Of a stretch of DNA of 64,000 nucleotides, positions 17,011 through 64,000 are shown piece after piece. Origin of the DNA: Candidatus Saccharimonadales bacterium (GTDB lineage Bacteria > Patescibacteriota > Saccharimonadia > UBA4664 > DATIHN01). How positions within the stretch are numbered: position 1 is the first letter of the stretch; each line of letters starts with the position of its first letter. A model generated the notes under the pieces. It did no database searches. It saw only the letters and a program-made list of their open reading frames with translations, and had not been told where the DNA came from. Location: assembly GCA_035480635.1 (NCBI GenBank), contig DATIHN010000016.1:76017-140016 (forward strand), given 5' to 3'. The position numbers and the translations under genes are program-made.

Positions 17011-17649
17011 CAACTTTCCGCCAATGCGGTCGGAGGAAACTGGCGATCAGCTCGGTCTGACCAACTCAGTCTTGCACATTCTGGTGACACAGTCGCCACG
17101 AGGCAGATGGTCACCGGAACTCCGGAGTGCTTGCTCTATGCGCCCTTGCGGGATCACCGGGGTTGACCCGGGCCGAGATACGGATTCTTGATTAGGCAGT
17201 TCCGTAGAACCTTATCGGCATGGTGGACTCGCGTCCAACCACCACCTTACTCTGGTGAGCTGACTACTTGGGTCGGTGTGGCCGTCCCAGATGGTCCCAG
17301 AGTAGTGCCAATTTCAAGTGGAGTTTCCTCCGCGAGGTAGAGCTGACGGATCCGATGGCAGGGTAGCAATCGAACCGCCTCTCGTCACGTGGGTGTCTAA
17401 TCCGCGTGAGTCAGCCAGACCTCTCTTGACGCTTGGCACTGGCCCCGTCCTTTCACTGCCCGAAGGCAAGCGACAGTTTCGGGGCACCGACGCTTCGCTC
17501 CGCTCCGCTTGGTCGACCCGGTCAGGTCTTCCTTTTGGTGGTAGCTAGCATCGGTTCGACCGGCTGTGGCCGCGCTCGAGGCACGTTCCGCAAACCAGTG
17601 CGAATTGTCAATCTGTTCTCGTCCACTCTGCATTACGAAGACCAAACAG
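16975..17649 (-). ncRNA. candidate large structured non-coding RNA (~675 nt, class unknown) with its own promoter and an intrinsic terminator
   Basis: GC-rich in an otherwise AT-rich intergenic context. No plausible ORF on either strand (the only ORFs are low-complexity R/S/A-rich). Minus-strand promoter TTGATC-17-TATATT at 17656-17684. Perfect 10-bp stem with a UUCG loop followed by a U-rich tail at 16970-17010. An 11-bp perfect long-range helix (17001-17011 pairs with 17322-17332). Internal UUCG-capped hairpins. Confidence 0.5.
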
Positions 17650-17655
17650 GACCTA

Positions 17656-17684
17656 AATATAATCCTTTCAAAAACAACGATCAA
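17656..17684 (-). promoter_or_regulatory. sigma70-like promoter (-35 TTGATC, 17-nt spacer, -10 TATATT) driving the candidate ncRNA
   Basis: Hexamers and spacing read from the minus strand just downstream of the LysM-CHAP stop and a weak terminator hairpin. Confidence 0.45.
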
Positions 17685-17775
17685 GCATAAGCAATTTGAT
17701 TTTTACAGATTAGAAACATTAAAAACCAAAATTTTCTCAAAAAAGTTATCCACAGTTTTGGATGGCCGAGATAGC

Positions 17776-19020
17776 TTAATAAATGTAGCGGAACTCGCTG
17801 GCTGGTACCGTTCGCGACGAGATGTGGTTCCAACCGCCGTTGTAATTCATTTCCGAAACCGTCACCATGCCGCCCGAAACTCCCTCAACATAGGCCACAT
17901 GGCCGTAGTAACCACCGGAGGTCCAAGCGATGGCGCCGGCGGCCGGGGCTGAGCCCACGGCGTAACCGCTAGCTTTGGCATTGTAATACCAGGCAGCAGC
18001 ATTGCCCCAGTTACTGGGCACATAGCGGCGGCTAGCCACGTAGTAAGTGCAATAACCATAGGCGTAACCATTACCGCTGAAGGCCAACCGAGGCAAGAGG
18101 CGGCTGTTACGCCCGCTGGTAGCGATAGCAATGTTGGTGGCGGCCTTGGCAGCTGGAGCATCAGCTTTGACGCCATCGGGGATGATAATTTGTTGGCCAG
18201 GTGTTAGACCCTTAACCTCAGCATCATTAAAGCTCAGGATTTGAGCGGCATTCGATTGATATTTAGCCGCCAAACTATCGGCCGTATCGCCCCCTTGAAC
18301 GGTGTAGAGCAAGCCACTAATCGGCAAAATAGTTAGGGCTTGACCGGGCTTGATGTTATCAGAGTCAGTTAAATTATTAGCCCACTTAATGGTGGCGGTT
18401 GTGACATTAAATTTAGCCGCGATACCGGAAAGGGTATCGCCATCGGCCACGCTGTAATTAATAATAGTGTGCTGATCGGCCCCGCTGGTGGCAACGGCCT
18501 GTCGTTTATTCAAAAAGTCACTACTGGAAGTAGGTAGGGATATTTGCGCGCTCAAAGCCGAAGCGGTCTGATTAGCATCGGAAGCAATCGTCAAATTAGT
18601 TTTGGCTGCTACCACTGCTGCCACATTGGCAGCCGAAGCCTCATCCAAAACTGAACCCAGCCCAGCCGGAGAGTTAATTAAACTGGCTTGATGGCTCGAA
18701 GCCGAGCTCCCAGCCACAACCACGAGTGTAATTGCGCTGGCCACTGCCACGTGCAAACTAAGCCTTTTGGCAGTTGGTTGAGCCAGGACTGTGCGCACAT
18801 TCTTAACTTGGTTTTCAGTTGCTCGGGCTAGTTCGGCCGAGCGGTTTTTGGCGTCTGTTAAACGTGGGAGTTTTGTTTTAGAGATGGACTCGGCTGCTCC
18901 GGTTCCAAGCTGCCAGGTGGCAGGCGGGAACGATTCGAGGGAGCCGCTGAAGGCTTCTCTACTAATGTGATTTCTCCACCCCAAGCCGGTATTACTACCG
19001 ATTGGGAAACTAAGGGCCAC
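17776..19020 (-). CDS. peptidoglycan hydrolase: two LysM domains plus a C-terminal CHAP (NlpC/P60-like amidase/peptidase) domain
   Basis: LysM repeats (YTVQGGDTADSLAAKY…, YSVADGDTLSGIAAKF…). CHAP region CTYYVASRRY…GHVAYVEGV with the catalytic Cys/His. GTG start with an AAGGAAG RBS. Confidence 0.8.
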   Translation of the reverse strand: MALSFPIGSNTGLGWRNHISREAFSGSLESFPPATWQLGTGAAESISKTKLPRLTDAKNRSAELARATENQVKNVRTVLAQPTAKRLSLHVAVASAITLVVVAGSSASSHQASLINSPAGLGSVLDEASAANVAAVVAAKTNLTIASDANQTASALSAQISLPTSSSDFLNKRQAVATSGADQHTIINYSVADGDTLSGIAAKFNVTTATIKWANNLTDSDNIKPGQALTILPISGLLYTVQGGDTADSLAAKYQSNAAQILSFNDAEVKGLTPGQQIIIPDGVKADAPAAKAATNIAIATSGRNSRLLPRLAFSGNGYAYGYCTYYVASRRYVPSNWGNAAAWYYNAKASGYAVGSAPAAGAIAWTSGGYYGHVAYVEGVSGGMVTVSEMNYNGGWNHISSRTVPASEFRYIY

Positions 19021-40220: not shown

Positions 40221-40295
40221 CTCCCCTACTCTACCCTATTTAGGGTCTTTTAATAAGTTAAAGGCGGCTCCGTAGAGCCGCCGGTTGGTCGCTTT

Positions 40296-40604
40296 TCAGG
40301 CGACTTCTGGGCTGAGTTGGTTTTGCCGATGGTTATCGGCGATGGCTTCGCGCATCAGTCGACGACCCTCACAAGTCATGCGGAAACAGAGACCGTCGCC
40401 TTCTTCTAGGAACCCATTGATGACCAGTTCCCGAAGCACCTCTGGGGTGATGCCTCTGATCTCGGCCGCGTAGACACAGTGGTCGTCAAAGACCAGTATC
40501 CCGCCTCTGTCAGGCTTACACCATTGCAGCCAACCGTCACCCGGTTGGATGTAAAAGATCTCCAGCGCGGTTTGTTGGATCAATTCCTCGGTCAGTGCCA
40601 TCAT
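40296..40604 (-). CDS. small winged-helix-like protein (102 aa), paralog of the ORF at 40838-41161
   Basis: Start MMALTEEL overlaps the stop of an upstream 33-aa peptide (ATGATG/TGA). C-terminal GFLEEGDGLCFRMTCEGRRLMREAI resembles a wHTH wing (Y/FRxT..G..L). A Rho-independent terminator follows at 40264-40284. Confidence 0.45.
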   Translation of the reverse strand: MMALTEELIQQTALEIFYIQPGDGWLQWCKPDRGGILVFDDHCVYAAEIRGITPEVLRELVINGFLEEGDGLCFRMTCEGRRLMREAIADNHRQNQLSPEVA

Positions 40605-40702
40605 CGAACCGCCATGACGCGCTTGAAGCTGGCAACGGCGTAGATGGCCGAAATTGCCAGGGCTGATGCAGTACCTGCGACTGTCCACTTGACCACCTTC
40701 AT
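40601..40702 (-). CDS. putative 33-aa hydrophobic peptide MKVVKWTVAGTASALAISAIYAVASFKRVMAVR
   Basis: Strong RBS AGGGGGAAAC-ATG. Stop overlaps the next start. Confidence 0.3.
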   Translation of the reverse strand: MKVVKWTVAGTASALAISAIYAVASFKRVMAVR

Positions 40703-40712
40703 GTTTCCCCCT

Positions 40713-40823
40713 TCACTTGTGGAGTAAGCGCGGAAATCGCGGCTGATCGTTATCGAAGAAATCGATGATTGGTCCCAAAACCAATCCGACCGTCATAACC
40801 GCAGCCAGTGCCGCTACCGACAT
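40713..40823 (-). CDS. putative 36-aa hydrophobic peptide MSVAALAAVMTVGLVLGPIIDFFDNDQPRFPRLLHK
   Basis: GAGAGG RBS 10 nt upstream. Reading frame read manually. Below the ORF-track size cutoff. Confidence 0.3.
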   Translation of the reverse strand: MSVAALAAVMTVGLVLGPIIDFFDNDQPRFPRLLHK

Positions 40824-40837
40824 CACCAATTTGCCTC

Positions 40838-41161
40838 TCACGATCGCGCCTTAGAACGAACCGCCCTCTTGTGAGCTGCTTTGGTCATACGGTAATGGCA
40901 GTCCGGTTTGGCCTCCAAAACGCCGGCTTGTATCAGGTGAACGACAGGCCGCATTGTCATACTCAGCAGTAGTTCAGAACCGTCGTAGAAACCAGGGCCC
41001 TGCGGGCCGCTGTATATATAGCGGATGAGGGTGCCAGCAGGATGAGATGAGAAAAGTTGGATGATTTGACGTTCGGCGCCCTCGTCGCGCGGATCCTGGC
41101 TGGAATCAACCCCCGCATCACTCCACTCCACGCCGTCGTAATAGAAGCCCGAGGCCGTCAT
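40838..41161 (-). CDS. small winged-helix-like protein (107 aa), paralog of 40296-40604
   Basis: C-terminal …GVLEAKPDCHYRMTKAAHKRAVRS aligns with …GFLEEGDGLCFRMTCEGRRLMREA of the paralog. Confidence 0.45.
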   Translation of the reverse strand: MTASGFYYDGVEWSDAGVDSSQDPRDEGAERQIIQLFSSHPAGTLIRYIYSGPQGPGFYDGSELLLSMTMRPVVHLIQAGVLEAKPDCHYRMTKAAHKRAVRSKARS

Positions 41162-41164
41162 TGA

Positions 41165-41290
41165 TCAGCCCCTTCCTGAGTCATAGGCCGCCAGCGCATT
41201 CAAGAGCATGGCACTGGCGATCGAGCCAGCACCAACCAGGGCCAAACCGAAGATGCACGTTCGGGTAGTGATGATAAAGCCCTTCTTCAC
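41165..41290 (-). CDS. putative 41-aa hydrophobic peptide (GTG start) VKKGFIITTRTCIFGLALVGAGSIASAMLLNALAAYDSGRG
   Basis: GGGGGTAAAAA-GTG RBS. Stop TGA sits 4 nt before the ATG of the 107-aa gene (GGAAGGGGCTGATCAATG). Confidence 0.3.
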   Translation of the reverse strand: MKKGFIITTRTCIFGLALVGAGSIASAMLLNALAAYDSGRG

Positions 41291-41400
41291 TTTTTACCCC
41301 CATGCTACCGAATGGTATGCCAGCCATTGTGCAACTTTACAAATAAATAATCAAGACTTTTCGGATCCGAGAGCTTACCCTCGGATCCTAGTCACCACCC

Positions 41401-41721
41401 TTAAGCAGTGACGAAGCTGGCGGCCGGCACGTCGTAGGTCGAATGGTTGATCATCACTCGCCCCAAGTAGCGGTGGTACGGGCTGTAGCGACCAGGTTCG
41501 CGGGTGTGTTCAATCAGCAGACCATTCAGTCGGTAACCATCCGGCGCCACTAGCAATTGATCACAGTTGGCAACCAACTGGTCCGCGGTCCCAGCAATTT
41601 GGACTAAGAACTCATCCCCAGGCAACAGCCGAACTACGTCGACTGCCACTCTGACTGTTCCGAGCTTTGGCATGATCCGCCGACAGGCCGGCTCACTGCC
41701 CTTAACTAGAACTTGGGTCAC
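41401..41721 (-). CDS. hypothetical protein (106 aa)
   Basis: ORF only. Relatively high GC. No motif recognised. Confidence 0.45.
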   Translation of the reverse strand: MTQVLVKGSEPACRRIMPKLGTVRVAVDVVRLLPGDEFLVQIAGTADQLVANCDQLLVAPDGYRLNGLLIEHTREPGRYSPYHRYLGRVMINHSTYDVPAASFVTA

Positions 41722-41847
41722 TCTATCCCCTTTTGTTGGTACGAACTTAGATAAGTTACTTTGATTATATTCGGTTTTTGTTCGGTTTGTAAAGAGTTTT
41801 TCTCAAATAAATTTCCCTCACTCGGGAAGGCATTCTAACTTCTCTCC

Positions 41848-41925
41848 CCACCAATTTTTTATGTAAGCTCTTATTTCTTACCCCTGTAATACTTTGTATG
41901 GCCGTCGATACAAAAAAATTGGTGG
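41848..41925 (+). repeat. H1 hairpin repeat, copy a (forward)
   Basis: ccaccaattttttatgtaagc…[~40-nt loop]…cgatacaaaaaaattggtgg. A 13-14-bp stem including a 6-7-bp A:T run. Confidence 0.7.
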
Positions 41926-41951
41926 GGCTTGTTTCTTTTCTAGATCATCTT

Positions 41952-42004
41952 GAGCAGATTGCTCAGTCTATATCTCCCCTTACTTAGTTCTTCGCAATCT
42001 GCTG
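41952..42004 (+). repeat. H2 hairpin repeat, copy a (forward)
   Basis: gagcagattgc…[31-nt loop containing ctcccc]…gcaatctgctg. A 10-bp stem. Confidence 0.7.
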
Positions 42005-42055
42005 TTTGGATTTAATAAATACACTCTTCTAGCTGAGGTCTGAATTACTCCATTT

Positions 42056-42108
42056 AGCAGGTTGTGAGGGGTTTGGTAGTGGGAGAAAGTAAGCGAACAA
42101 CCTGCTCC
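42056..42108 (+). repeat. H2 hairpin repeat, variant copy b (reverse orientation, compensatory stem changes)
   Basis: cagcaggttg…gtagtgggagaaag…caacctgctc. A-to-G and T-to-C changes on opposite arms keep the stem paired. Confidence 0.65.
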
Positions 42109-42130
42109 TATTGATCCAAAAGATAAACTC

Positions 42131-42213
42131 CCCAGCCCATTTTTTTGTATCGACTAAGTTAGTAGTCGTAATGGGAGTATGAAGAGTCAGCTTACACAAA
42201 AAATGGGCTGGGG
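42131..42213 (+). repeat. H1 hairpin repeat, copy b (reverse orientation); it ends 20 nt downstream of the rpf stop
   Basis: cccagcccatttttttgtatcgac…gcttacacaaaaaatgggctgg. The ~100-nt block 42113-42215 is nearly identical to 50150-50252. Confidence 0.7.
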
Positions 42214-42232
42214 GGAGAAGTTAGTACCTGGT

Positions 42233-43387
42233 TTAAATAAGCCCGAGCTTGACGGAGCAGACCGGCCAGGGCGACCAGCCACGGCGGGCCTGAACGACTT
42301 TGGCAATCGCATCTTGAGTCGCGGGATCAGCGTCGCTTGGCAAACCGGTGCCGCCGTTTGATTGCCAGGTACCCAGATCGAACTGGTAGGCGCCATAATA
42401 ACCATTGCCGCTGTTACGGGTATAATTATTACCTGTTTCACAAACCCGCAAACGATACCAAACATCATCCCGAATCTTGGTACCGACATGAATCACTCGA
42501 TTGACGGGATTCACCAGATTGGCCACATTCAAAACTTGGCGCTGAACCTCAATGCCATCGTGATAATTAATTTTATAGGTCACATCGCGGCCGCCAACGC
42601 TACCTGCTTCGACCACTCGGCTCTCGCCCTGGTACATCGAATCATCACGAACGGTCTGAATATGATTAGCTAGATCCTCATGTTTAGTTACAACGACTTC
42701 CGTCACCCGAGTGATGGTAATGTTTTCGCCCGGCACAATTTGATTGCTCAATGGCACCGAGGTCGTATCTTGCTCCCCCATCGGTATGTGCTTTTCTTGC
42801 AATAAGCCAGCCACCGTAGTGGCTTGGGTCCGCAGTTGTCTAGTGGCGCCGTCAACGCTCAAGACCACTGGTTTGGCCCGTTTGACTACGACCTTTTCGC
42901 CCACCGTCCCATCGCCAACGAAGTTGGTCACGAAAGCATCGCTAAATTGGTCCTCGGGGTAGGTGTTAATCCCGGCATCCCCCGTGATCAAGCGCGGACT
43001 GCCATGCGGAGAATCAACCATCTTTTCGGTCGTGCCGTCTTGAACTAAAACTGGTCGGGCTCGGTACACGTTGATATTAAAGAAGCCAGTTGGAATTTGA
43101 GTGTTAGCAGCCGGCTCTACCAGATCGTGCGGTCCCAGTTTGGAATTTGTTCGCGCCAAAACTTCGCCCACGGTACTAGCGTCGGTCGTAAAGATGCGCT
43201 TTTGGCCATCCGCAAAGTAGCTAACCACCTTGGCCGAGTCGGCGTAGGCGCGACCCGTGGTGGGTAGTTTTCCGGCTAAGATTGCGTAAGTAACGATAAT
43301 GATGAGAATGCCGACCAAACCGTAGATGCGTGGTGCTGTCGGCACCCGGCCCCGGTGGGACCGATTGGTGTTGCCTAAAATCGACAA
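42233..43387 (-). CDS. resuscitation-promoting factor, RpfB-like (TM anchor, DUF348-like repeats, G5 domain, C-terminal Rpf transglycosylase-like domain)
   Basis: C-terminal WYRLRVCETGNNYTRNSGNGYYGAYQFDLGTW is the Rpf lysozyme-like signature with the catalytic Glu. TTG start. Confidence 0.75.
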   Translation of the reverse strand: MSILGNTNRSHRGRVPTAPRIYGLVGILIIIVTYAILAGKLPTTGRAYADSAKVVSYFADGQKRIFTTDASTVGEVLARTNSKLGPHDLVEPAANTQIPTGFFNINVYRARPVLVQDGTTEKMVDSPHGSPRLITGDAGINTYPEDQFSDAFVTNFVGDGTVGEKVVVKRAKPVVLSVDGATRQLRTQATTVAGLLQEKHIPMGEQDTTSVPLSNQIVPGENITITRVTEVVVTKHEDLANHIQTVRDDSMYQGESRVVEAGSVGGRDVTYKINYHDGIEVQRQVLNVANLVNPVNRVIHVGTKIRDDVWYRLRVCETGNNYTRNSGNGYYGAYQFDLGTWQSNGGTGLPSDADPATQDAIAKVVQARRGWSPWPVCSVKLGLI

Positions 43388-43528
43388 GCCTCTTAGTTAA
43401 ATCCAAGAGCTTTTGTTTCCACCTTTTTGTTTCTGTTAGTATCCTAGCAAAACCGCTCAGGCTGTCAACGCTTATCCACATGTTTTGACGATAATCAATA
43501 CTTTTAGTCAATATCTGATTGTAGGTAA

Positions 43529-43557
43529 TTGACTACATCTGGCTATTATGCTAAAGT
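43529..43557 (+). promoter_or_regulatory. sigma70-like promoter (TTGACT-17-TAAAGT)
   Basis: The ORF-track TTG start at 43529 coincides with the -35 hexamer, so the CDS start was moved downstream. Confidence 0.4.
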
Positions 43558-43594
43558 AATGCCAAGTCGCAAAGTCCAATTTCGATCAAGGGGA

Positions 43595-43960
43595 ATGAAG
43601 TTGACTGATGCAACCGAAGCCGTCGAAATCATCGAGGGTCGTGGCCCAGAAGAGATTGAACGTGTCATCGACAAGCACCTAGGTACAGCGCCACCGCTCT
43701 ACTACTGCAATGATCAGATCAGTGTCTTAGTTGTGGCTCGTACCAGTCAACCTGATGACGGACGCACGTGGCACCCAGCCAAAACATCCCGATCCGATGA
43801 GAAGACACAGTCGGCGAGGGTTGCCTCTGCCATCATCTCTGAGTTCAGAGCCCAACCAGAGGAATTTTTCTTCGAAGCCAAGGCCGAGGAAGTAGCTGGG
43901 AGTCCAGCACTCTGTTTTACCCGTCGGAACGTCGCAAAAGATCTGCGGGTCGTTGAATAA
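43595..43960 (+). CDS. small hypothetical protein, paralog 1 (121 aa from MKLTDATEAV)
   Basis: Shares …GTAPPLYYCNDQISVLVVARTSQPDDGRTWH with the downstream gene (…RTAPLRFAIDRELGVLVTEAAGNEAPDDSRQWV). Confidence 0.5.
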   Translation: MKLTDATEAVEIIEGRGPEEIERVIDKHLGTAPPLYYCNDQISVLVVARTSQPDDGRTWHPAKTSRSDEKTQSARVASAIISEFRAQPEEFFFEAKAEEVAGSPALCFTRRNVAKDLRVVE

Positions 43961-44009
43961 CCCGCTTACCACGAGGAATCCGCCTCGGCGGTAGGCGGGT
44001 TTCTCATTT
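43961..44009 (+). terminator. intrinsic terminator, copy 1 of a duplicated 49-nt sequence
   Basis: cccgcttacc…ggtaggcggg stem followed by tttctcattt. Nearly identical sequence (one mismatch) at 44786-44835. Confidence 0.6.
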
Positions 44010-44010
44010 G

Positions 44011-44038
44011 TTGACAAAACTCGTGTTTATGATAGAAT
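44011..44038 (+). promoter_or_regulatory. strong sigma70 promoter (TTGACA-16-TGaTAGAAT, extended -10)
   Basis: Consensus -35, TG motif and a -10 matching 5 of 6 consensus positions. AAGGAGG RBS then GTG at 44085. Confidence 0.6.
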
Positions 44039-44084
44039 CGGGTCCTAGTCGCATACCCTATTCGACTCGCACAAGGAGGCCACT

Positions 44085-44498
44085 GTGGCCGAAGCCATCT
44101 TCATCAAATTGCGCGGCAGTACCGACGTTGTCGAAGAAGGTCGTGAACGTATCCAGGCAATTTTGGAGTACCAATTTCGCACTGCACCACTGCGGTTCGC
44201 CATAGACCGCGAACTCGGTGTGCTGGTGACCGAGGCGGCAGGTAATGAGGCGCCGGACGATAGCCGCCAATGGGTCGACATTCATGACATGTCGGAATGG
44301 GACTTCCCCGTTTCTCATGCCAGGCAGCTTTCTGAGGTCATAGACACTTGGCTGAAAGACCTCAGTGATTCCCAAAGAAAGGACCTGTGTCGAGCCCAGC
44401 CTTTCGAGGTTCACGGCCTGCAACTGATCGGCTTCCAGGCGAGAACACGGCGGATCGGCGAAACCAGGGTGCTGGCATTCGTCCCGGCTTGGGTCTGA
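44085..44498 (+). CDS. small hypothetical protein, paralog 2 (137 aa, GTG start)
   Basis: Paralogous to 43595-43960. Stop overlaps the next gene (TGATCATG). Confidence 0.5.
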   Translation: MAEAIFIKLRGSTDVVEEGRERIQAILEYQFRTAPLRFAIDRELGVLVTEAAGNEAPDDSRQWVDIHDMSEWDFPVSHARQLSEVIDTWLKDLSDSQRKDLCRAQPFEVHGLQLIGFQARTRRIGETRVLAFVPAWV

Positions 44499-44500
44499 TC

Positions 44501-44785
44501 ATGACCGATGCGCCCAGCGATGACGACCTGACGACACAAGAACGCGAGCTGCTAGCCGCCCTGCTCTACGGCTCAACCGAAGAGAAAGCTCTGGCCTTAA
44601 GAGCACTCGGCGTCATCCCGGCCGAGGAACTATTAGATGAGTTCGGCAAGCTGACAGACGAGCAAAAGGCTGTCGTCATTGACAGAGCAATTTTCTTGCG
44701 CTACGGCCCGACCGGCATGAACGATGCGGAGGCCATCGTCGCTGCCATGCAAGAGTGGCACGATGGCAAGCTCAAGCTCCCCTAA
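44501..44785 (+). CDS. small acidic helical protein (94 aa, MTDAPSDDDL…)
   Basis: Start placed at the ATG immediately after the upstream stop. The longer ORF-track version (from 44387) would overlap the preceding gene in another frame. Confidence 0.45.
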   Translation: MTDAPSDDDLTTQERELLAALLYGSTEEKALALRALGVIPAEELLDEFGKLTDEQKAVVIDRAIFLRYGPTGMNDAEAIVAAMQEWHDGKLKLP

Positions 44786-44835
44786 CCCGCTTACCACGAG
44801 GAATCCGCCTCGCCGGTAGGCGGGTTTCTCATTTT
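44786..44835 (+). terminator. intrinsic terminator, copy 2 of the duplicated sequence
   Basis: Same hairpin plus T-tract as at 43961-44009. Confidence 0.6.
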
Positions 44836-45394
44836 ATGACAACAGAAACTTTTTGATGAACCCGATCTTGAACGTCAAAGTATAGGCGATTGAAAAAGCA
44901 TGCCCTCTGGTTCTAACCCGCAAATCAGCTGCGCCAGGGACGGTGGCAACGCTTGGATCAACGGTATTATCGCTGAGTGGCCTAATGGTCAGTAATTTTT
45001 TGGCTAAATTTTCATCTTCACTTAGATACTGATCGGCTATTTTGGCAGCCGTTAGAAAGGCCGGACTGCGCTTTTGCATGGTAACTGGGTTGAGATAATT
45101 GCTGTCCAGTACACCACAAATGCTGACGATCCGTTGTGTTAATTCTGGATTCCTGGCCGCTAGAATGATAGTCGCACTAGCCCCGGCACTGGCACCTACT
45201 ACACCAATCAGGTTCCGGCAGCCCTCCGCCGCAGCCAGCAATTTTTGATACTTGGGTTCAAAATCTCCGCCATCCTCCCAGGCTAATTCGCACACATGCA
45301 GCCGCACTCCGTACAATCGCCAGAGTGGCCTAAGCCAGATGTAGAGACGTTCGTTGTTGGTGCCGAGGCCAGGGATGAGGATAACGTCGCGCAT
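44834..45394 (-). CDS. alpha/beta hydrolase (esterase/thioesterase-like)
   Basis: GASAG nucleophile elbow (IGVVGASAGASATI). 186 aa. Start abuts the pcrA stop. Confidence 0.55.
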   Translation of the reverse strand: MRDVILIPGLGTNNERLYIWLRPLWRLYGVRLHVCELAWEDGGDFEPKYQKLLAAAEGCRNLIGVVGASAGASATIILAARNPELTQRIVSICGVLDSNYLNPVTMQKRSPAFLTAAKIADQYLSEDENLAKKLLTIRPLSDNTVDPSVATVPGAADLRVRTRGHAFSIAYTLTFKIGFIKKFLLS

Positions 45395-47506
45395 CTAGAC
45401 TTTGGTAATCGGAGCGAAGCTCAGGCTTAGTTTTTTGACACCCAAATGAGCAAAGGCGGCTGTCAGCTCATCACCATCGACGCTGACCACGATGCCCTCA
45501 CCAAATTTGTTGTGGCGGATTTTATCGCCGGCCTGAAAGGATTTGTGAACTGGTTCGAGTTTAGGCACTTCAACTTCTTGGGCCGTTTGGGAGCGAGTCA
45601 GCTCCGGTGGAATATCGAGCAAAAAGCGCGACGGCGGGTTGTGGCTGGTGTTGCCATAAAGCAAGCGCGAATTGGCATGAATCAAATAAAGCCGCTCGCG
45701 AGCCCTCGTCATGCCGACGTAGCAAAGCCGGCGTTCCTCCTCCAGCTCGGCTAAATCAATTTGGCTGCGGCTATGGGGGAAAACGTTTTCTTCCATGCCG
45801 GTCATGAAAACGATGGGAAATTCCAGCCCTTTAGCGGCATGCAGCGTCATCAACGTCACGGCATTGGTATCGCTAGAATAATTATCAAGATCCGAGATTA
45901 GCGCGATCTCTTCCAAAAAGCCTTCCAGGCCAATATCGTCGTAGGTTTGAGCCACACTGATTAATTCTTTGACGTTTTCGACCCGCTCCGCGGCTTGAAT
46001 GGTGCCATCGTCCAGCCATTCCAGGTAGCCACTGCGTTTGATGACGAGCTCCAAAAACTGGCTGGTCAGCATGCCTTCACTGGGCTCCTGCAAACCCCGA
46101 ATCAACAAGGCAAATTGCTTGAAGGCTTGGACCGCCCTTGGCGTCAGCCCGGTGATTTGATCAGCACTTTCCAGGGCCTCGAGCAAAGGTAGCCCGCTGC
46201 TATTCTTGAAAGCAATCAATCGTTCCAAACTTTTATCACCCAACCCCCTGGGTGGTAAATTAACGATGCGGTTGAAGTTGATCAGATCCTCGGGTTGATA
46301 AATGAAGCGCAAATAGCCCATGACGTCCTTGATCTCACGGCGCTCGTAGAACCGAGTACCGCCGACGATTTTGTAGGGCAAGTTGTTGCGTAAAAAAGCT
46401 TCCTCCAGTGAACGCGATTGAGCATTGGTCCGATAAAGCACCGCAAAATCGGCCAGCTCGCGCTTTTCTTCGATAATCAGCCGATTGACCTGCAGCACGA
46501 TGGCCTCGCCCTCTTGAGCCTCGTTGTAAACTTGCTCGATGACTACGCCGTGGCCGCGATCGTTTTCGGTCCAAAGCTCTTTATGGGAACGTTGTTGGTT
46601 TTTGGTAATGATGGCGTGCGCTGCATCCAGAATGTTTTTGGACGAGCGATAATTCTGCTCGAGTTTAATGACGGCAGCTTCGGGATAATCTTTTTCGAAA
46701 TCGAGAATGTTTTGAAAGTTGGCCCCCCGCCAAGAATAAATTGATTGCCAATCATCCCCCACTACGCAGATATTGCGGTGGGTCGCGGCTAGGAGCTTAG
46801 CAAAAATATATTGGGCCCGATTGGTGTCTTGATACTCATCAATCAGGATGTATTTGAACTGATCCTGATATTTTTTGAGCAGTTCGGAATTGTGGCGAAA
46901 GGCCTTAACGACTTCAAAGATTAGATCGTCAAAGTCCAACGCGCCGGCATCGCGCAACAGCTTTTGATAAACTGTGTAGACGCGTGCGGCCGTGGTTTGG
47001 GCCGGCCCGTAGGCCACGGCTTTGTAGGCGGCCGCATCAATTAGTTCGTTTTTGGCACTCGAAATCAAACCGGCAATCATCGGCGGTGCAAACTGCTTTT
47101 CGCTAATGCCCAGGCTGCGCATGGCAGCTTTAGTGGCAGCTAGCGCATCTTGTTGGTCGTAGATGATGAAGCTGGCTGAGAGCCCCAGATCTTTGGCTTC
47201 TCGGCGCAGAATCCGTACGCAAATCGAATGAAAGGTGCCCATAAACGGCAGATAGTTGCGATTATCGGGGTGCTTGCCTAGTAGCTCCAACACGCGCTTA
47301 CGCATCTCCCCGGCCGCTTTGTTCGTAAAAGTCACGGCCAAAATATTCAGCGGGCTGATGTGACAATCGGCCACCAAATAGGCGATCCGGTGGGTCAGGG
47401 CCTTGGTTTTGCCGCTCCCCGCCCCGGCCAACATCAAAACTGGGCCTTCCGTTGTTTGAACGGCCTGGCGTTGGGGTGGGTTTAGGTCTGTTAGTAAATC
47501 TGGCAC
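45395..47506 (-). CDS. pcrA: ATP-dependent DNA helicase PcrA/UvrD
   Basis: LNPPQRQAV…GPVLMLAGAGSGKT (Q motif plus Walker A). UvrD motifs throughout. 703 aa. GTG start. Confidence 0.9.
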   Translation of the reverse strand: MPDLLTDLNPPQRQAVQTTEGPVLMLAGAGSGKTKALTHRIAYLVADCHISPLNILAVTFTNKAAGEMRKRVLELLGKHPDNRNYLPFMGTFHSICVRILRREAKDLGLSASFIIYDQQDALAATKAAMRSLGISEKQFAPPMIAGLISSAKNELIDAAAYKAVAYGPAQTTAARVYTVYQKLLRDAGALDFDDLIFEVVKAFRHNSELLKKYQDQFKYILIDEYQDTNRAQYIFAKLLAATHRNICVVGDDWQSIYSWRGANFQNILDFEKDYPEAAVIKLEQNYRSSKNILDAAHAIITKNQQRSHKELWTENDRGHGVVIEQVYNEAQEGEAIVLQVNRLIIEEKRELADFAVLYRTNAQSRSLEEAFLRNNLPYKIVGGTRFYERREIKDVMGYLRFIYQPEDLINFNRIVNLPPRGLGDKSLERLIAFKNSSGLPLLEALESADQITGLTPRAVQAFKQFALLIRGLQEPSEGMLTSQFLELVIKRSGYLEWLDDGTIQAAERVENVKELISVAQTYDDIGLEGFLEEIALISDLDNYSSDTNAVTLMTLHAAKGLEFPIVFMTGMEENVFPHSRSQIDLAELEEERRLCYVGMTRARERLYLIHANSRLLYGNTSHNPPSRFLLDIPPELTRSQTAQEVEVPKLEPVHKSFQAGDKIRHNKFGEGIVVSVDGDELTAAFAHLGVKKLSLSFAPITKV

Positions 47507-48810: not shown

Positions 48811-48914
48811 GCGAATGCATCGATGGTTCTACCCACCCAGAACGCCAACATGATGCGCTCATGCTAATAAATTTGCAAGACTTTCAGACGGCAACCAACC
48901 TAAGCCATTTTCCC

Positions 48915-48993
48915 TAGCCCATTTTTTATGTAAGCTCTCATTTCCTACTACCATAACCATTCGTGCTTATGTCGATACAAAAAAATGGGCTAG
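48915..48993 (+). repeat. H1 hairpin repeat, copy c (forward)
   Basis: tagcccattttttatgtaagc…gtcgatacaaaaaaatgggcta. The outer stem covaries relative to copy a (ccaccaa/ttggtgg becomes agcccat/atgggct). Confidence 0.7.
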
Positions 48994-49017
48994 GGTGTAT
49001 ATCTTTTAGATCATCTG

Positions 49018-49070
49018 GAGCAGATTGCTCAGTTTATTTCTCCCCTTACCTAATCCTTCGCAATCTGCTG
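49018..49070 (+). repeat. H2 hairpin repeat, copy c (forward); it ends 30 nt downstream of the tpiA stop
   Basis: gagcagattgctcagtttatttctccccttacctaatccttcgcaatctgctg. Confidence 0.7.
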
Positions 49071-49100
49071 TCTGGATAATTGAAGATGGAGAGTAGCGAA

Positions 49101-49925: not shown

Positions 49926-49985
49926 TTTCTCTCCCCACCCAGCTTCATCCGCTCCCACCCTATCTCCTCCTATCCTATCTGCCCT
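49926..49985 (+). repeat. pyrimidine-rich (C/T) tract preceding M3
   Basis: ttctctccccacccagcttcatccgctcccaccctatctcctcctatcctatctgccc. Similar C/T-rich tracts occur at 63750-63800 and 41812-41850. Confidence 0.5.
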
Positions 49986-49994
49986 GCGTCTTTT

Positions 49995-50070
49995 ACCGTT
50001 CGGCCTTAAGACTGGCTCGCGAGTTATCGTCGCTCGCTAATAGGACGAACAGTCTTTCGGCTCGAACGGT
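49995..50070 (+). repeat. M3 hairpin repeat, copy a
   Basis: accgttcggccttaagactg…[loop with the palindrome gctcgcgag]…cagtctttcggctcgaacggt. Outer 8-bp stem and inner 7-bp stem. Identical apart from a few substitutions to 63818-63893. Confidence 0.7.
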
Positions 50071-50094
50071 GTATTTTCTCATTAAAATCCATAT

Positions 50095-50156
50095 AGCAGA
50101 TTGCGAAGATGTAAGTAATGGGAGAGATTGACTGAGCAATCTGCTCAATTTGAACC
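50095..50156 (+). repeat. H2 hairpin repeat, copy d (reverse orientation)
   Basis: cagcagattgcgaagatgtaagtaatgggagagattgactgagcaatctgctc. Confidence 0.7.
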
Positions 50157-50169
50157 AAAAGATAAACTA

Positions 50170-50250
50170 CCCAGCCCATTTTTTTGTATCGACTAAGTTA
50201 GTAATCGTAATGGGAGTAGGAAGAGAGAGCTTACACAAAAAATGGGCTGG
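50170..50250 (+). repeat. H1 hairpin repeat, copy d (reverse orientation); it ends 10 nt downstream of the pgk stop
   Basis: cccagcccatttttttgtatcgac…gcttacacaaaaaatgggctgg. Confidence 0.7.
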
Positions 50251-63749: not shown

Positions 63750-63800
63750 CTTACCCCCCAGCACTATTCTCCCGCTCCCACTCAATCTACCCCCACGCCT
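63750..63800 (+). repeat. pyrimidine-rich tract (cluster 4)
   Basis: cttaccccccagcactattctcccgctcccactcaatctacccccacgcc. Confidence 0.45.
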
Positions 63801-63817
63801 TTTGCCCAGCGTCTTTT

Positions 63818-63893
63818 ACCGTTCGGCCTTAAGACTGGCTCGCGAGTTATCGTCGCTCGCTAATAGGACGTACAGTCTTTCGGCTCGAACGGT
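63818..63893 (+). repeat. M3 hairpin repeat, copy b
   Basis: Matches 49995-50070 apart from a few substitutions. Confidence 0.7.
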
Positions 63894-63914
63894 TATATTT
63901 ATTAAACATTCATA

Positions 63915-63966
63915 CAGCAGATTGCGAAGAACAAAGTAGGGGGAGATATTAACTGAGCAATCTGCT
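63915..63966 (+). repeat. H2 hairpin repeat, copy e (reverse orientation)
   Basis: cagcagattgcgaagaacaaagtagggggagatattaactgagcaatctgctc. It is followed by tagatgatctag and the start of an H1 arm (…cccaccaa) truncated by the window edge. Confidence 0.65.
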
Positions 63967-64000
63967 CTAGATGATCTAGAAAAAGACACCCACCCACCAA

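Follow-up and report, generated by a model that had tools for sequence, protein, structure and literature searches.

A probable family of self-contained, fast-diverging cassettes with near-identical hairpins at the rpf-pcrA locus of a Saccharimonadales genome

Phage morons are reportedly autonomous promoter-gene-terminator units, a concept credited to Hendrix and Juhala. Two units of similar build, which we call cassettes, are the subject of this work; one holds gene A and the other genes B and C. They lie in a 64,000-nt stretch, hereafter the window, of contig DATIHN010000016.1 from a metagenome-assembled genome (MAG) of a Candidatus Saccharimonadales bacterium (GCA_035480635.1). Saccharibacteria live on other bacteria and get by with very small genomes. 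Like morons, each cassette flanks one or two small, uncharacterized genes with a sigma-70-type promoter and a putative hairpin terminator of its own. Unlike morons, the cassettes are not in a prophage, as judged by a lack of PHROG matches and of phage genes within 10 kb, and they are inherited at a chromosomal housekeeping locus.

Two further types of array invite comparison. Integron cassettes and their attC sites, including clusters of attC sites lacking integrases (CALIN arrays), also combine small ORFans (open reading frames [ORFs] without homologs) with a hairpin repeat directly behind them, the hairpin being conserved above the ORF. Here, in contrast, there is no integrase within 10 kb, each cassette has a promoter of its own, there are two units only and the hairpin has a terminator-like U-rich tail. 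Read against the attC core motifs RYYYAAC and GTTRRRY, the repeat has GAATAAC or CCCTAAC at one edge and GTTTCTC at the opposite one, none of which fits the consensus. Polymorphic toxin-immunity or orphan-immunity arrays share with the cassettes small acidic cytoplasmic proteins, local paralogs and extreme divergence between close relatives, but the cassettes have no adjacent toxin or secretion-system gene and no immunity-family match. A literature search found no description of such cassettes in Saccharibacteria. Our analysis indicates that they probably represent a lineage-specific family of autonomous, locally duplicating, fast-diverging transcription units, two of which are found here and three at the same locus of a related genome.

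Genes A, B and the coupled 94-amino-acid (aa) gene C were located as the initial annotation had described them (Table 1) and correspond to hypothetical proteins VLE72_02370, VLE72_02375 and VLE72_02380 of the MAG. In their annotated frames, the guanine-plus-cytosine (GC) content of the three codon positions follows the order GC1 > GC3 > GC2 seen in long window genes, and this order is absent in the shifted frames. No signal peptide was found in A, B or C, and the proteins appear from their sequences to be soluble and acidic; an alpha/beta fold is predicted for the product of B. For gene A, an alternative TTG start at 43601 offers better Shine-Dalgarno spacing, and the ATG of C lies 2 nt past the TGA of B. 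The proposed paralogy of A and B is real though distant, with 37 of 131 residues identical (28%) at a BLASTP E-value of 4e-8 and a phmmer E-value of about 1e-3 among 13,543 ORFs. The alignment contains many indels. Since nucleotide identity in the codon alignment is only 45%, and 22 of the 37 identical residues are specified by different codons, the likeness appears to have been held at the protein level following an old duplication.

A close relative was found by a PcrA scan of metagenomes, in the form of a contig (L015) with a 22-kb locus in which the gene order of the window (ksgA, rpf, cassette, hydrolase, pcrA) is the same. Protein identity to the window is 81% for PcrA, 68% for KsgA, 62% for the hydrolase and 53% for Rpf. 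The next-best locus reaches 53% for PcrA, and more distant loci gave no hydrolase match and no full-length Rpf match. A second MAG (GCA_964637125.1) and three sequencing runs also yielded four contigs with the A-B-C locus, which at 99.97-100% identity carry no comparative information. At the rpf-hydrolase-pcrA locus, L015 has three cassettes that differ from those of the window in copy number and position. The first lies between rpf and the hydrolase gene, on the strand corresponding to that of A, B and C, and comprises TTGACA with an extended -10, a leader, AAGGAGG, gene X (112 aa as annotated here), gene Y (65 aa) and a hairpin whose U-rich tail reaches up to the stop codon of the hydrolase gene. 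Y matches C at E=2e-5, as in AMREYRNGDL opposite AMQEWHDGKL. Because the genes are closely coupled and the pair recurs in both genomes, C or Y is probably a partner of the protein encoded upstream, with C probably binding B. The other two cassettes, P144 and P127, lie between the hydrolase gene and pcrA and encode clear paralogs (E of about 1e-24, 39% identity); like A, neither has a partner gene.

The flanks of these cassettes are built from ordinary parts. The window contains seven sites that match TTGACA/TATAAT at 11 or more of 12 positions, where 0.72 are expected from shuffles, an enrichment of about 10-fold, and consensus sigma-70-type promoters are a true feature of this candidate-phyla-radiation genome. 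The sites of both A and B have -35 and -10 hexamers separated by a spacer within the 16-18-nt range. They had been described as near-consensus and strong, which is accurate for B (11/12, and the sole extended -10 TG among the seven sites), whereas A has a moderate match of 9/12. The AAGGAGG ribosome-binding site reported for B is present, 5 nt upstream of its GTG start. The leaders of A and B are about 40-60% identical and align above shuffles (z=3.8). All five leaders of the two genomes align, with AGTCG just past the -10 box; the motif reads AGTCGCA in A, B and P127, AGTCGtt in P144 and GGTCGCA in X, and B, X and P127 have a second TCGCAC ahead of the Shine-Dalgarno site. In the B leader, AGTCG and CGACT could pair at the 5' end as a 5-bp stem. 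Such a stem-loop is predicted in four of the five leaders, with only wobble changes across them and a fold clearly above shuffles for P144 alone (z=-2.5), so that a 5' leader stem in the cassettes is offered as a suggestion without statistical support. In the P144 leader (L015 14436-14482, minus strand), both copies of the TCGCA motif are changed to TCGTT, a paired change that could reflect a dimeric operator or a duplication within the leader.

Each unit in the window closes with a hairpin. The initial annotation had reported a nearly identical 49-nt terminator behind both units; two copies are indeed present, but the repeat is longer, with 57 of 60 nt identical from the TAA stop codon through TGACAA. 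The TGACAA that closes copy 1 supplies most of the -35 box of the B promoter. The 49-nt core has two window matches at up to 3 mismatches, compared with none in 100 shuffles. Both hairpins begin directly after TAA, a layout that recurs in the three L015 cassettes, and both are long and interrupted, with folding energies of -32.3 and -29.4 kcal/mol (z of about -6). The tail UUUCUCAUUU has U at 7 of 10 bases in a broken run, and a scan listed both sites as terminator-like. We take the cassette hairpins with their U-rich tails to be intrinsic terminators. The view that the units are self-contained stands, each having its own promoter, Shine-Dalgarno site and putative hairpin terminator. Separately, each copy contains an imperfect inverted repeat made up of ACGAGGAATCCG and the tail CGGGTTTCTCAT (43971-43982 with 43996-44007, and 44796-44807 with 44821-44832). 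This pairing permits an alternative, mutually exclusive hairpin, and the P144 terminator of L015 folds in that second register.

Homology of the flanks extends across the two genomes. The five terminators align in CCCG, ACGAG, a distal GGGTT and a T-run in the tail, and RNAalifold assigned them 18 consensus pairs, 5 of which show compensatory changes. When a hidden Markov model (HMM) was built from the three L015 terminators only, the two window terminators were its best non-self matches (T2, E=2e-4; T1, E=0.059) in the 1.26 Mb of DNA used for flank scans, which included L015 and other loci. Among the proteins, P144 was the top non-self match of an A+B HMM (E=0.029; 13,543 ORFs). An hhalign comparison of A+B with P127+P144 was collinear over 98 columns (P=0.0065), and X matched P144 in the N-terminal halves only (E=0.035). 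These marginal protein links, taken together with position, orientation and flank homology, lead us to place the cassettes in a single family, in which protein divergence far outpaces that of the neighbouring genes. The earlier suggestion that the cassettes arose by duplication or recombination is likewise upheld by the A/B leader alignment (z=3.8) and by the three homologous L015 cassettes at the same locus.

Outside these two genomes, no homologs of A, B or C were detected. Searches of A, B and C, each against 5.8 billion proteins, returned self matches only, and an A+B profile against 1.84 billion cluster representatives recovered A and B only. Nothing meaningful was found for A, B or C in Pfam, PHROGs, PADLOC, NCBIfam or PDB sequences, and tblastn against 50,697 phage records gave no match. 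The profile searches recommended for the two paralogs thus gave no homologs. Domain hints to Phage_tail_S (A), DUF494 (C), ANTAR (Y) and a PADLOC 2TM effector (P127) were not significant (E=0.015-0.12); the ANTAR hint for Y, at E=0.12, is not present in C. A 718-aa ORF on a viral contig (L005) contains EAPDDSRQW, identical to B, and was rejected as a chance match: that same pattern had served to pick the locus, the alignment does not extend beyond it and A hardly fits. The structure model of B was unusable (predicted local distance difference test score [pLDDT] of 45). C is modelled as a bundle of five helices (pLDDT 81), for which neither PDB nor BFVD gave a structural neighbour.

The hairpin was also searched for elsewhere. 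Scanning with HMMs gave no further copy of hairpin or leader in the roughly 77 kb covered of the A/B/C genome (the 64-kb window plus 13 kb of sequence on its outer sides), nor in L015 or the remaining loci of the 1.26 Mb. The concern that the terminator might be a ubiquitous REP-like element was not borne out, as there is no third copy in the 77 kb and both copies are linked to cassettes; REP, BIME and MITE elements are marked by many dispersed, gene-independent copies. Rfam has no family across 41500-45000, even at E-values up to 1. A hairpin-stem scan of a genome collection, in which the source genome was not included, gave 9 matches in unrelated bacteria, about the number expected by chance, and hairpin scans of metagenomes and of viral sequences gave no match. 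Two leader-motif matches in the viral scans were taken as chance, the promoter layout being missing.

To the initial annotation, the region 40285-44800 had looked like a horizontally acquired island. This reading did not survive comparison, since L015 has homologous cassettes at the same locus, including the Y-C match at E=2e-5. Because like units occupy the same rpf-hydrolase-pcrA locus in a close relative, the cassette family is inherited vertically and was not imported. The recommended checks of GC content, codon usage and synteny also spoke against an island: composition is just mildly off and gene order is kept in L015. GC content is 0.52 for 40285-44800 and 0.53-0.58 in the cassette block, against 0.505 for the window; GC3 ranges from 0.5 standard deviations below to 2.4 above the mean of long genes, and the codon-usage index lies 1-3 standard deviations below long genes. 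Among the called genes within 10 kb there are no integrase, recombinase, mobility or phage genes, nor are there tRNAs within that distance, the nearest lying at window positions 15.5 kb and 61 kb. The ksgA-rpf interval likewise differs between the window genome and L015, which argues for a chromosomal region that evolves fast and against an import.

Tandem multigene families under concerted evolution, by gene conversion or unequal crossing-over, are a further parallel. As in such families, the cassette terminators are closer within a genome (96% identity for T1 and T2 of the window, 83% for P127 and P144 of L015) than between genomes (56-64%), and a promoter stub is left. Unlike in such families, only the non-coding hairpin of about 60 nt is homogenized here, while the coding parts stand at 28-39% protein identity; at the nucleotide level, coding identity is 45% for A and B, 53% for P127 and P144 and 32-39% between genomes. 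Because terminator identity is higher within than between genomes and is confined to a short, sharp-edged segment, we infer that hairpin-limited gene conversion or unequal crossing-over may keep the terminators alike. A stub resembling the start of a promoter follows the last terminator: in the window it takes the form of TATGACAA, which is similar to GTTGACAA, and L015 has TTATAAG behind the P127 and P144 terminators alike. Such a stub in both genomes is the expected remnant of unequal recombination in a tandem array. The window stub also forms the end of the hydrolase gene, the final two codons and stop of which are the last 9 nt of repeat copy 2 (44834-44842). The hydrolase C-terminus is LLS-stop in the window, shorter than and unlike the LTEQAA-stop of L015, as if the end of the gene had been overwritten by the repeat.

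We propose the following organization and history. A unit starts with an extended -10 sigma-70-type promoter, a 30-50-nt leader beginning at AGTCGCA and a Shine-Dalgarno site, and encodes an acidic cytoplasmic protein of 110-140 aa, to which some units add a small helical acidic partner (C or Y). At its end, a long hairpin, rich in GC and carrying a U-rich tail, lies no more than 5 nt past the stop codon. Each unit probably acts as an independent one- or two-gene operon. Unequal recombination between the homologous flanks could let units increase in number and shift position locally. The A/B duplication would be old, and gene conversion, limited to the homology that remains in the hairpin, would hold the terminators nearly identical. 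A role of the family in molecular conflict (immunity, anti-defence or host interaction) is suggested by the divergence rate, the duplication and the autonomous expression, but this is speculative, and weak constraint is the alternative.

Table 1. Positions in the window of the cassettes, their putative signals and neighbouring features
Feature	Position	Strand	Description
Promoter-like site of cassette A	43529..43557	+	TTGACT-17-TGcTAAAGT, 9/12, extended -10 TG
Leader of A	43565..43594	+	Opens AGTCGCA; Shine-Dalgarno AAGGGG at 43588-43593
Gene A	43595..43960	+	121 aa, isoelectric point (pI) 5.1, acidic, ORFan, paralog of B
Repeat copy 1	43958..44017	+	TAA of A, hairpin 43961-44005, U-rich tail TTTCTCATTT, TGACAA
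Promoter of cassette B-C	44011..44038	+	TTGACA-16-TGaTAGAAT, 11/12, extended -10 TG
Leader of B	44046..44084	+	AGTCGCA, 13 nt, TCGCAC; AAGGAGG at 44073-44079
Gene B	44085..44498	+	137 aa, pI 5.1, acidic ORFan, GTG start, motif LVTEAAGNEAPDDSRQW
Gene C	44501..44785	+	94 aa, pI 4.3, counterpart of Y in L015
Repeat copy 2	44783..44842	+	TAA of C, hairpin 44786-44830, U-rich tail
Alpha/beta-hydrolase-like gene, convergent	44834..45394	-	Synteny anchor, 62% identical in L015
Small-ORF pairs	41165-41290 with 40838-41161; 40713-40841 with 40296-40688	-	
Dispersed repeat copies	41845-42021, 42043-42213, 48911-49081, 49949-50250, 63772-64000		Two form an inverted pair beside rpf

Several points weigh against the reading of the cassettes as one such family. 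Homology of the leaders across genomes is marginal: an HMM built from the window alone matches the X leader at E=0.063, and one built from L015 alone finds none in the window. The protein links between genomes are weak (E=0.029, P=0.0065 and E=0.035), each marginal alone, and X is not significantly similar to either A or B. No specific protein function is supported, with a B model at pLDDT 45 and a C model without structural neighbour. The activity of the promoters and terminators is predicted from sequence, and the U-tract is interrupted (UUUCUCAUUU). The search for extra hairpin copies covered about 77 kb, where a Saccharimonadales genome measures about 1 Mb. Finally, there is one informative relative, and phylogeny cannot separate gene conversion from independent recent duplication or from a strong sequence constraint on the hairpin.

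Among the alternatives, one assigns the flanks an active role, either as recombination or homology arms of an integron-like exchange or, for the hairpin, as a cis-acting RNA that co-evolves with a genome-specific binding factor. The flanks are conserved above the ORFs within and between genomes, the copy number and position of the cassettes differ between the relatives, and ACGAG is invariant in five of five hairpins, though it is paired differently in single-sequence folds. This explanation is nonetheless unlikely, as no integrase or recombinase lies within 10 kb, the repeat is without attC-type core sites (RYYYAAC and GTTRRRY), Rfam gives no match and the ANTAR hint for Y is neither significant nor shared by C. 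A fuller version, in which the flanks would be working parts (homology arms or a cis-acting RNA or DNA element) of an integrase-independent system that duplicates, moves and swaps very fast-evolving conflict proteins at a fixed chromosomal locus, the hairpin being read by a genome-specific factor, is in our estimate a long shot.

Alternatively, A and B might stem from a recent tandem duplication, with diversifying selection or targeted hypermutation then driving the coding parts apart at extreme speed. The near-identical terminators (96-98%) would fit such an event, as would homology that runs into the start of the next promoter as at a tandem-duplication junction, and the whole family evolves faster than its neighbours. 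However, A and B are 45% identical at the nucleotide level with many indels and use different codons at 22 of 37 conserved residues, and the leaders have diverged as well (about 40-60% identical), so that the divergence appears general, old and untargeted. Because it is general and rich in indels and affects the leaders too, a recent duplication followed by hypermutation is improbable. Neither a reverse transcriptase nor a template repeat lies within 10 kb; for comparison with diversity-generating retroelements, no gene of the reverse transcriptase family was found within that distance, and the sole coding repeat is the distant A/B paralogy.

A further idea, that B and C work as toxin and antitoxin or as toxin and immunity protein, with A as an orphaned toxin or immunity paralog, is very unlikely. 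In its favour, both genes are small and closely linked, the product of the second is strongly acidic, the layout is retained in L015 as X-Y, and fast evolution and local duplication would suit such a pair. Against this stand the lack of PADLOC, Pfam, NCBIfam or PDB matches at meaningful E-values, the acidity of B itself (pI 5.1), which is not toxin-like, the lack of a DNA-binding antitoxin domain, and the fact that A, P127 and P144 are without a partner gene. Hardly tenable is the idea that a mobile or dispersed hairpin of the REP, BIME or MITE type gave rise to the 60-nt repeat by landing after two unrelated genes, with no tie to the gene family: although the hairpin is stable with sharp boundaries, the copy scan spans a small part of the genome (about 77 kb), and the genome has another dispersed intergenic repeat family (at least 5 window copies, two of them beside rpf), only two copies lie in the 77 kb, each right after the stop codon of a family cassette, homologous hairpins stand behind all three L015 cassettes and nowhere else in its 22-kb locus, and the hairpin sequence is unrelated to that dispersed family.

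The neighbourhood of the cassettes has features of its own. The members of the dispersed intergenic repeat family, at least 5 in the window, measure about 100-300 nt and are 77-88% identical; the family has no Rfam match, is absent from L015 and is unrelated to the cassette hairpin. Between ksgA and rpf, 40296-41290 (minus strand) contains two successive pairs, each consisting of an ORF for a transmembrane peptide of about 41 aa followed by an ORFan of 107-130 aa. The 130-aa and 107-aa ORFs are not detectable paralogs of each other, and none of the ORFs in this segment has a tblastn homolog in L015, the ksgA-rpf interval of which holds two small membrane-peptide ORFs (17395-17628 and 17628-17855). 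In L015, a 428-aa ORFan (L015 12152-13438) separates the cassettes from pcrA and has no Pfam, PADLOC or NCBIfam match; in the window, pcrA and the hydrolase gene abut and there is no counterpart. The window and GCA_964637125.1 show just six differences, all of them within 52 nt near the 5' end of pcrA (47363-47414), the remaining 20.4 kb being identical; a short tract of recombination or a mosaic assembly would look like this.

As it stands, the locus presents a new, uncharacterized, fast-evolving family with ordinary regulatory parts and not a new mechanism, and its interest is moderate to low unless the flanks turn out to have an active role. It does offer a clean, small example of concerted evolution restricted to a non-coding hairpin, and shows that an ORFan without homologs can still be placed through synteny and flank homology. 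For the biology of these bacteria, a family kept in several self-expressed copies, the members of which have diverged past recognition in closely related genomes, makes a candidate for defence or for interaction with the host.

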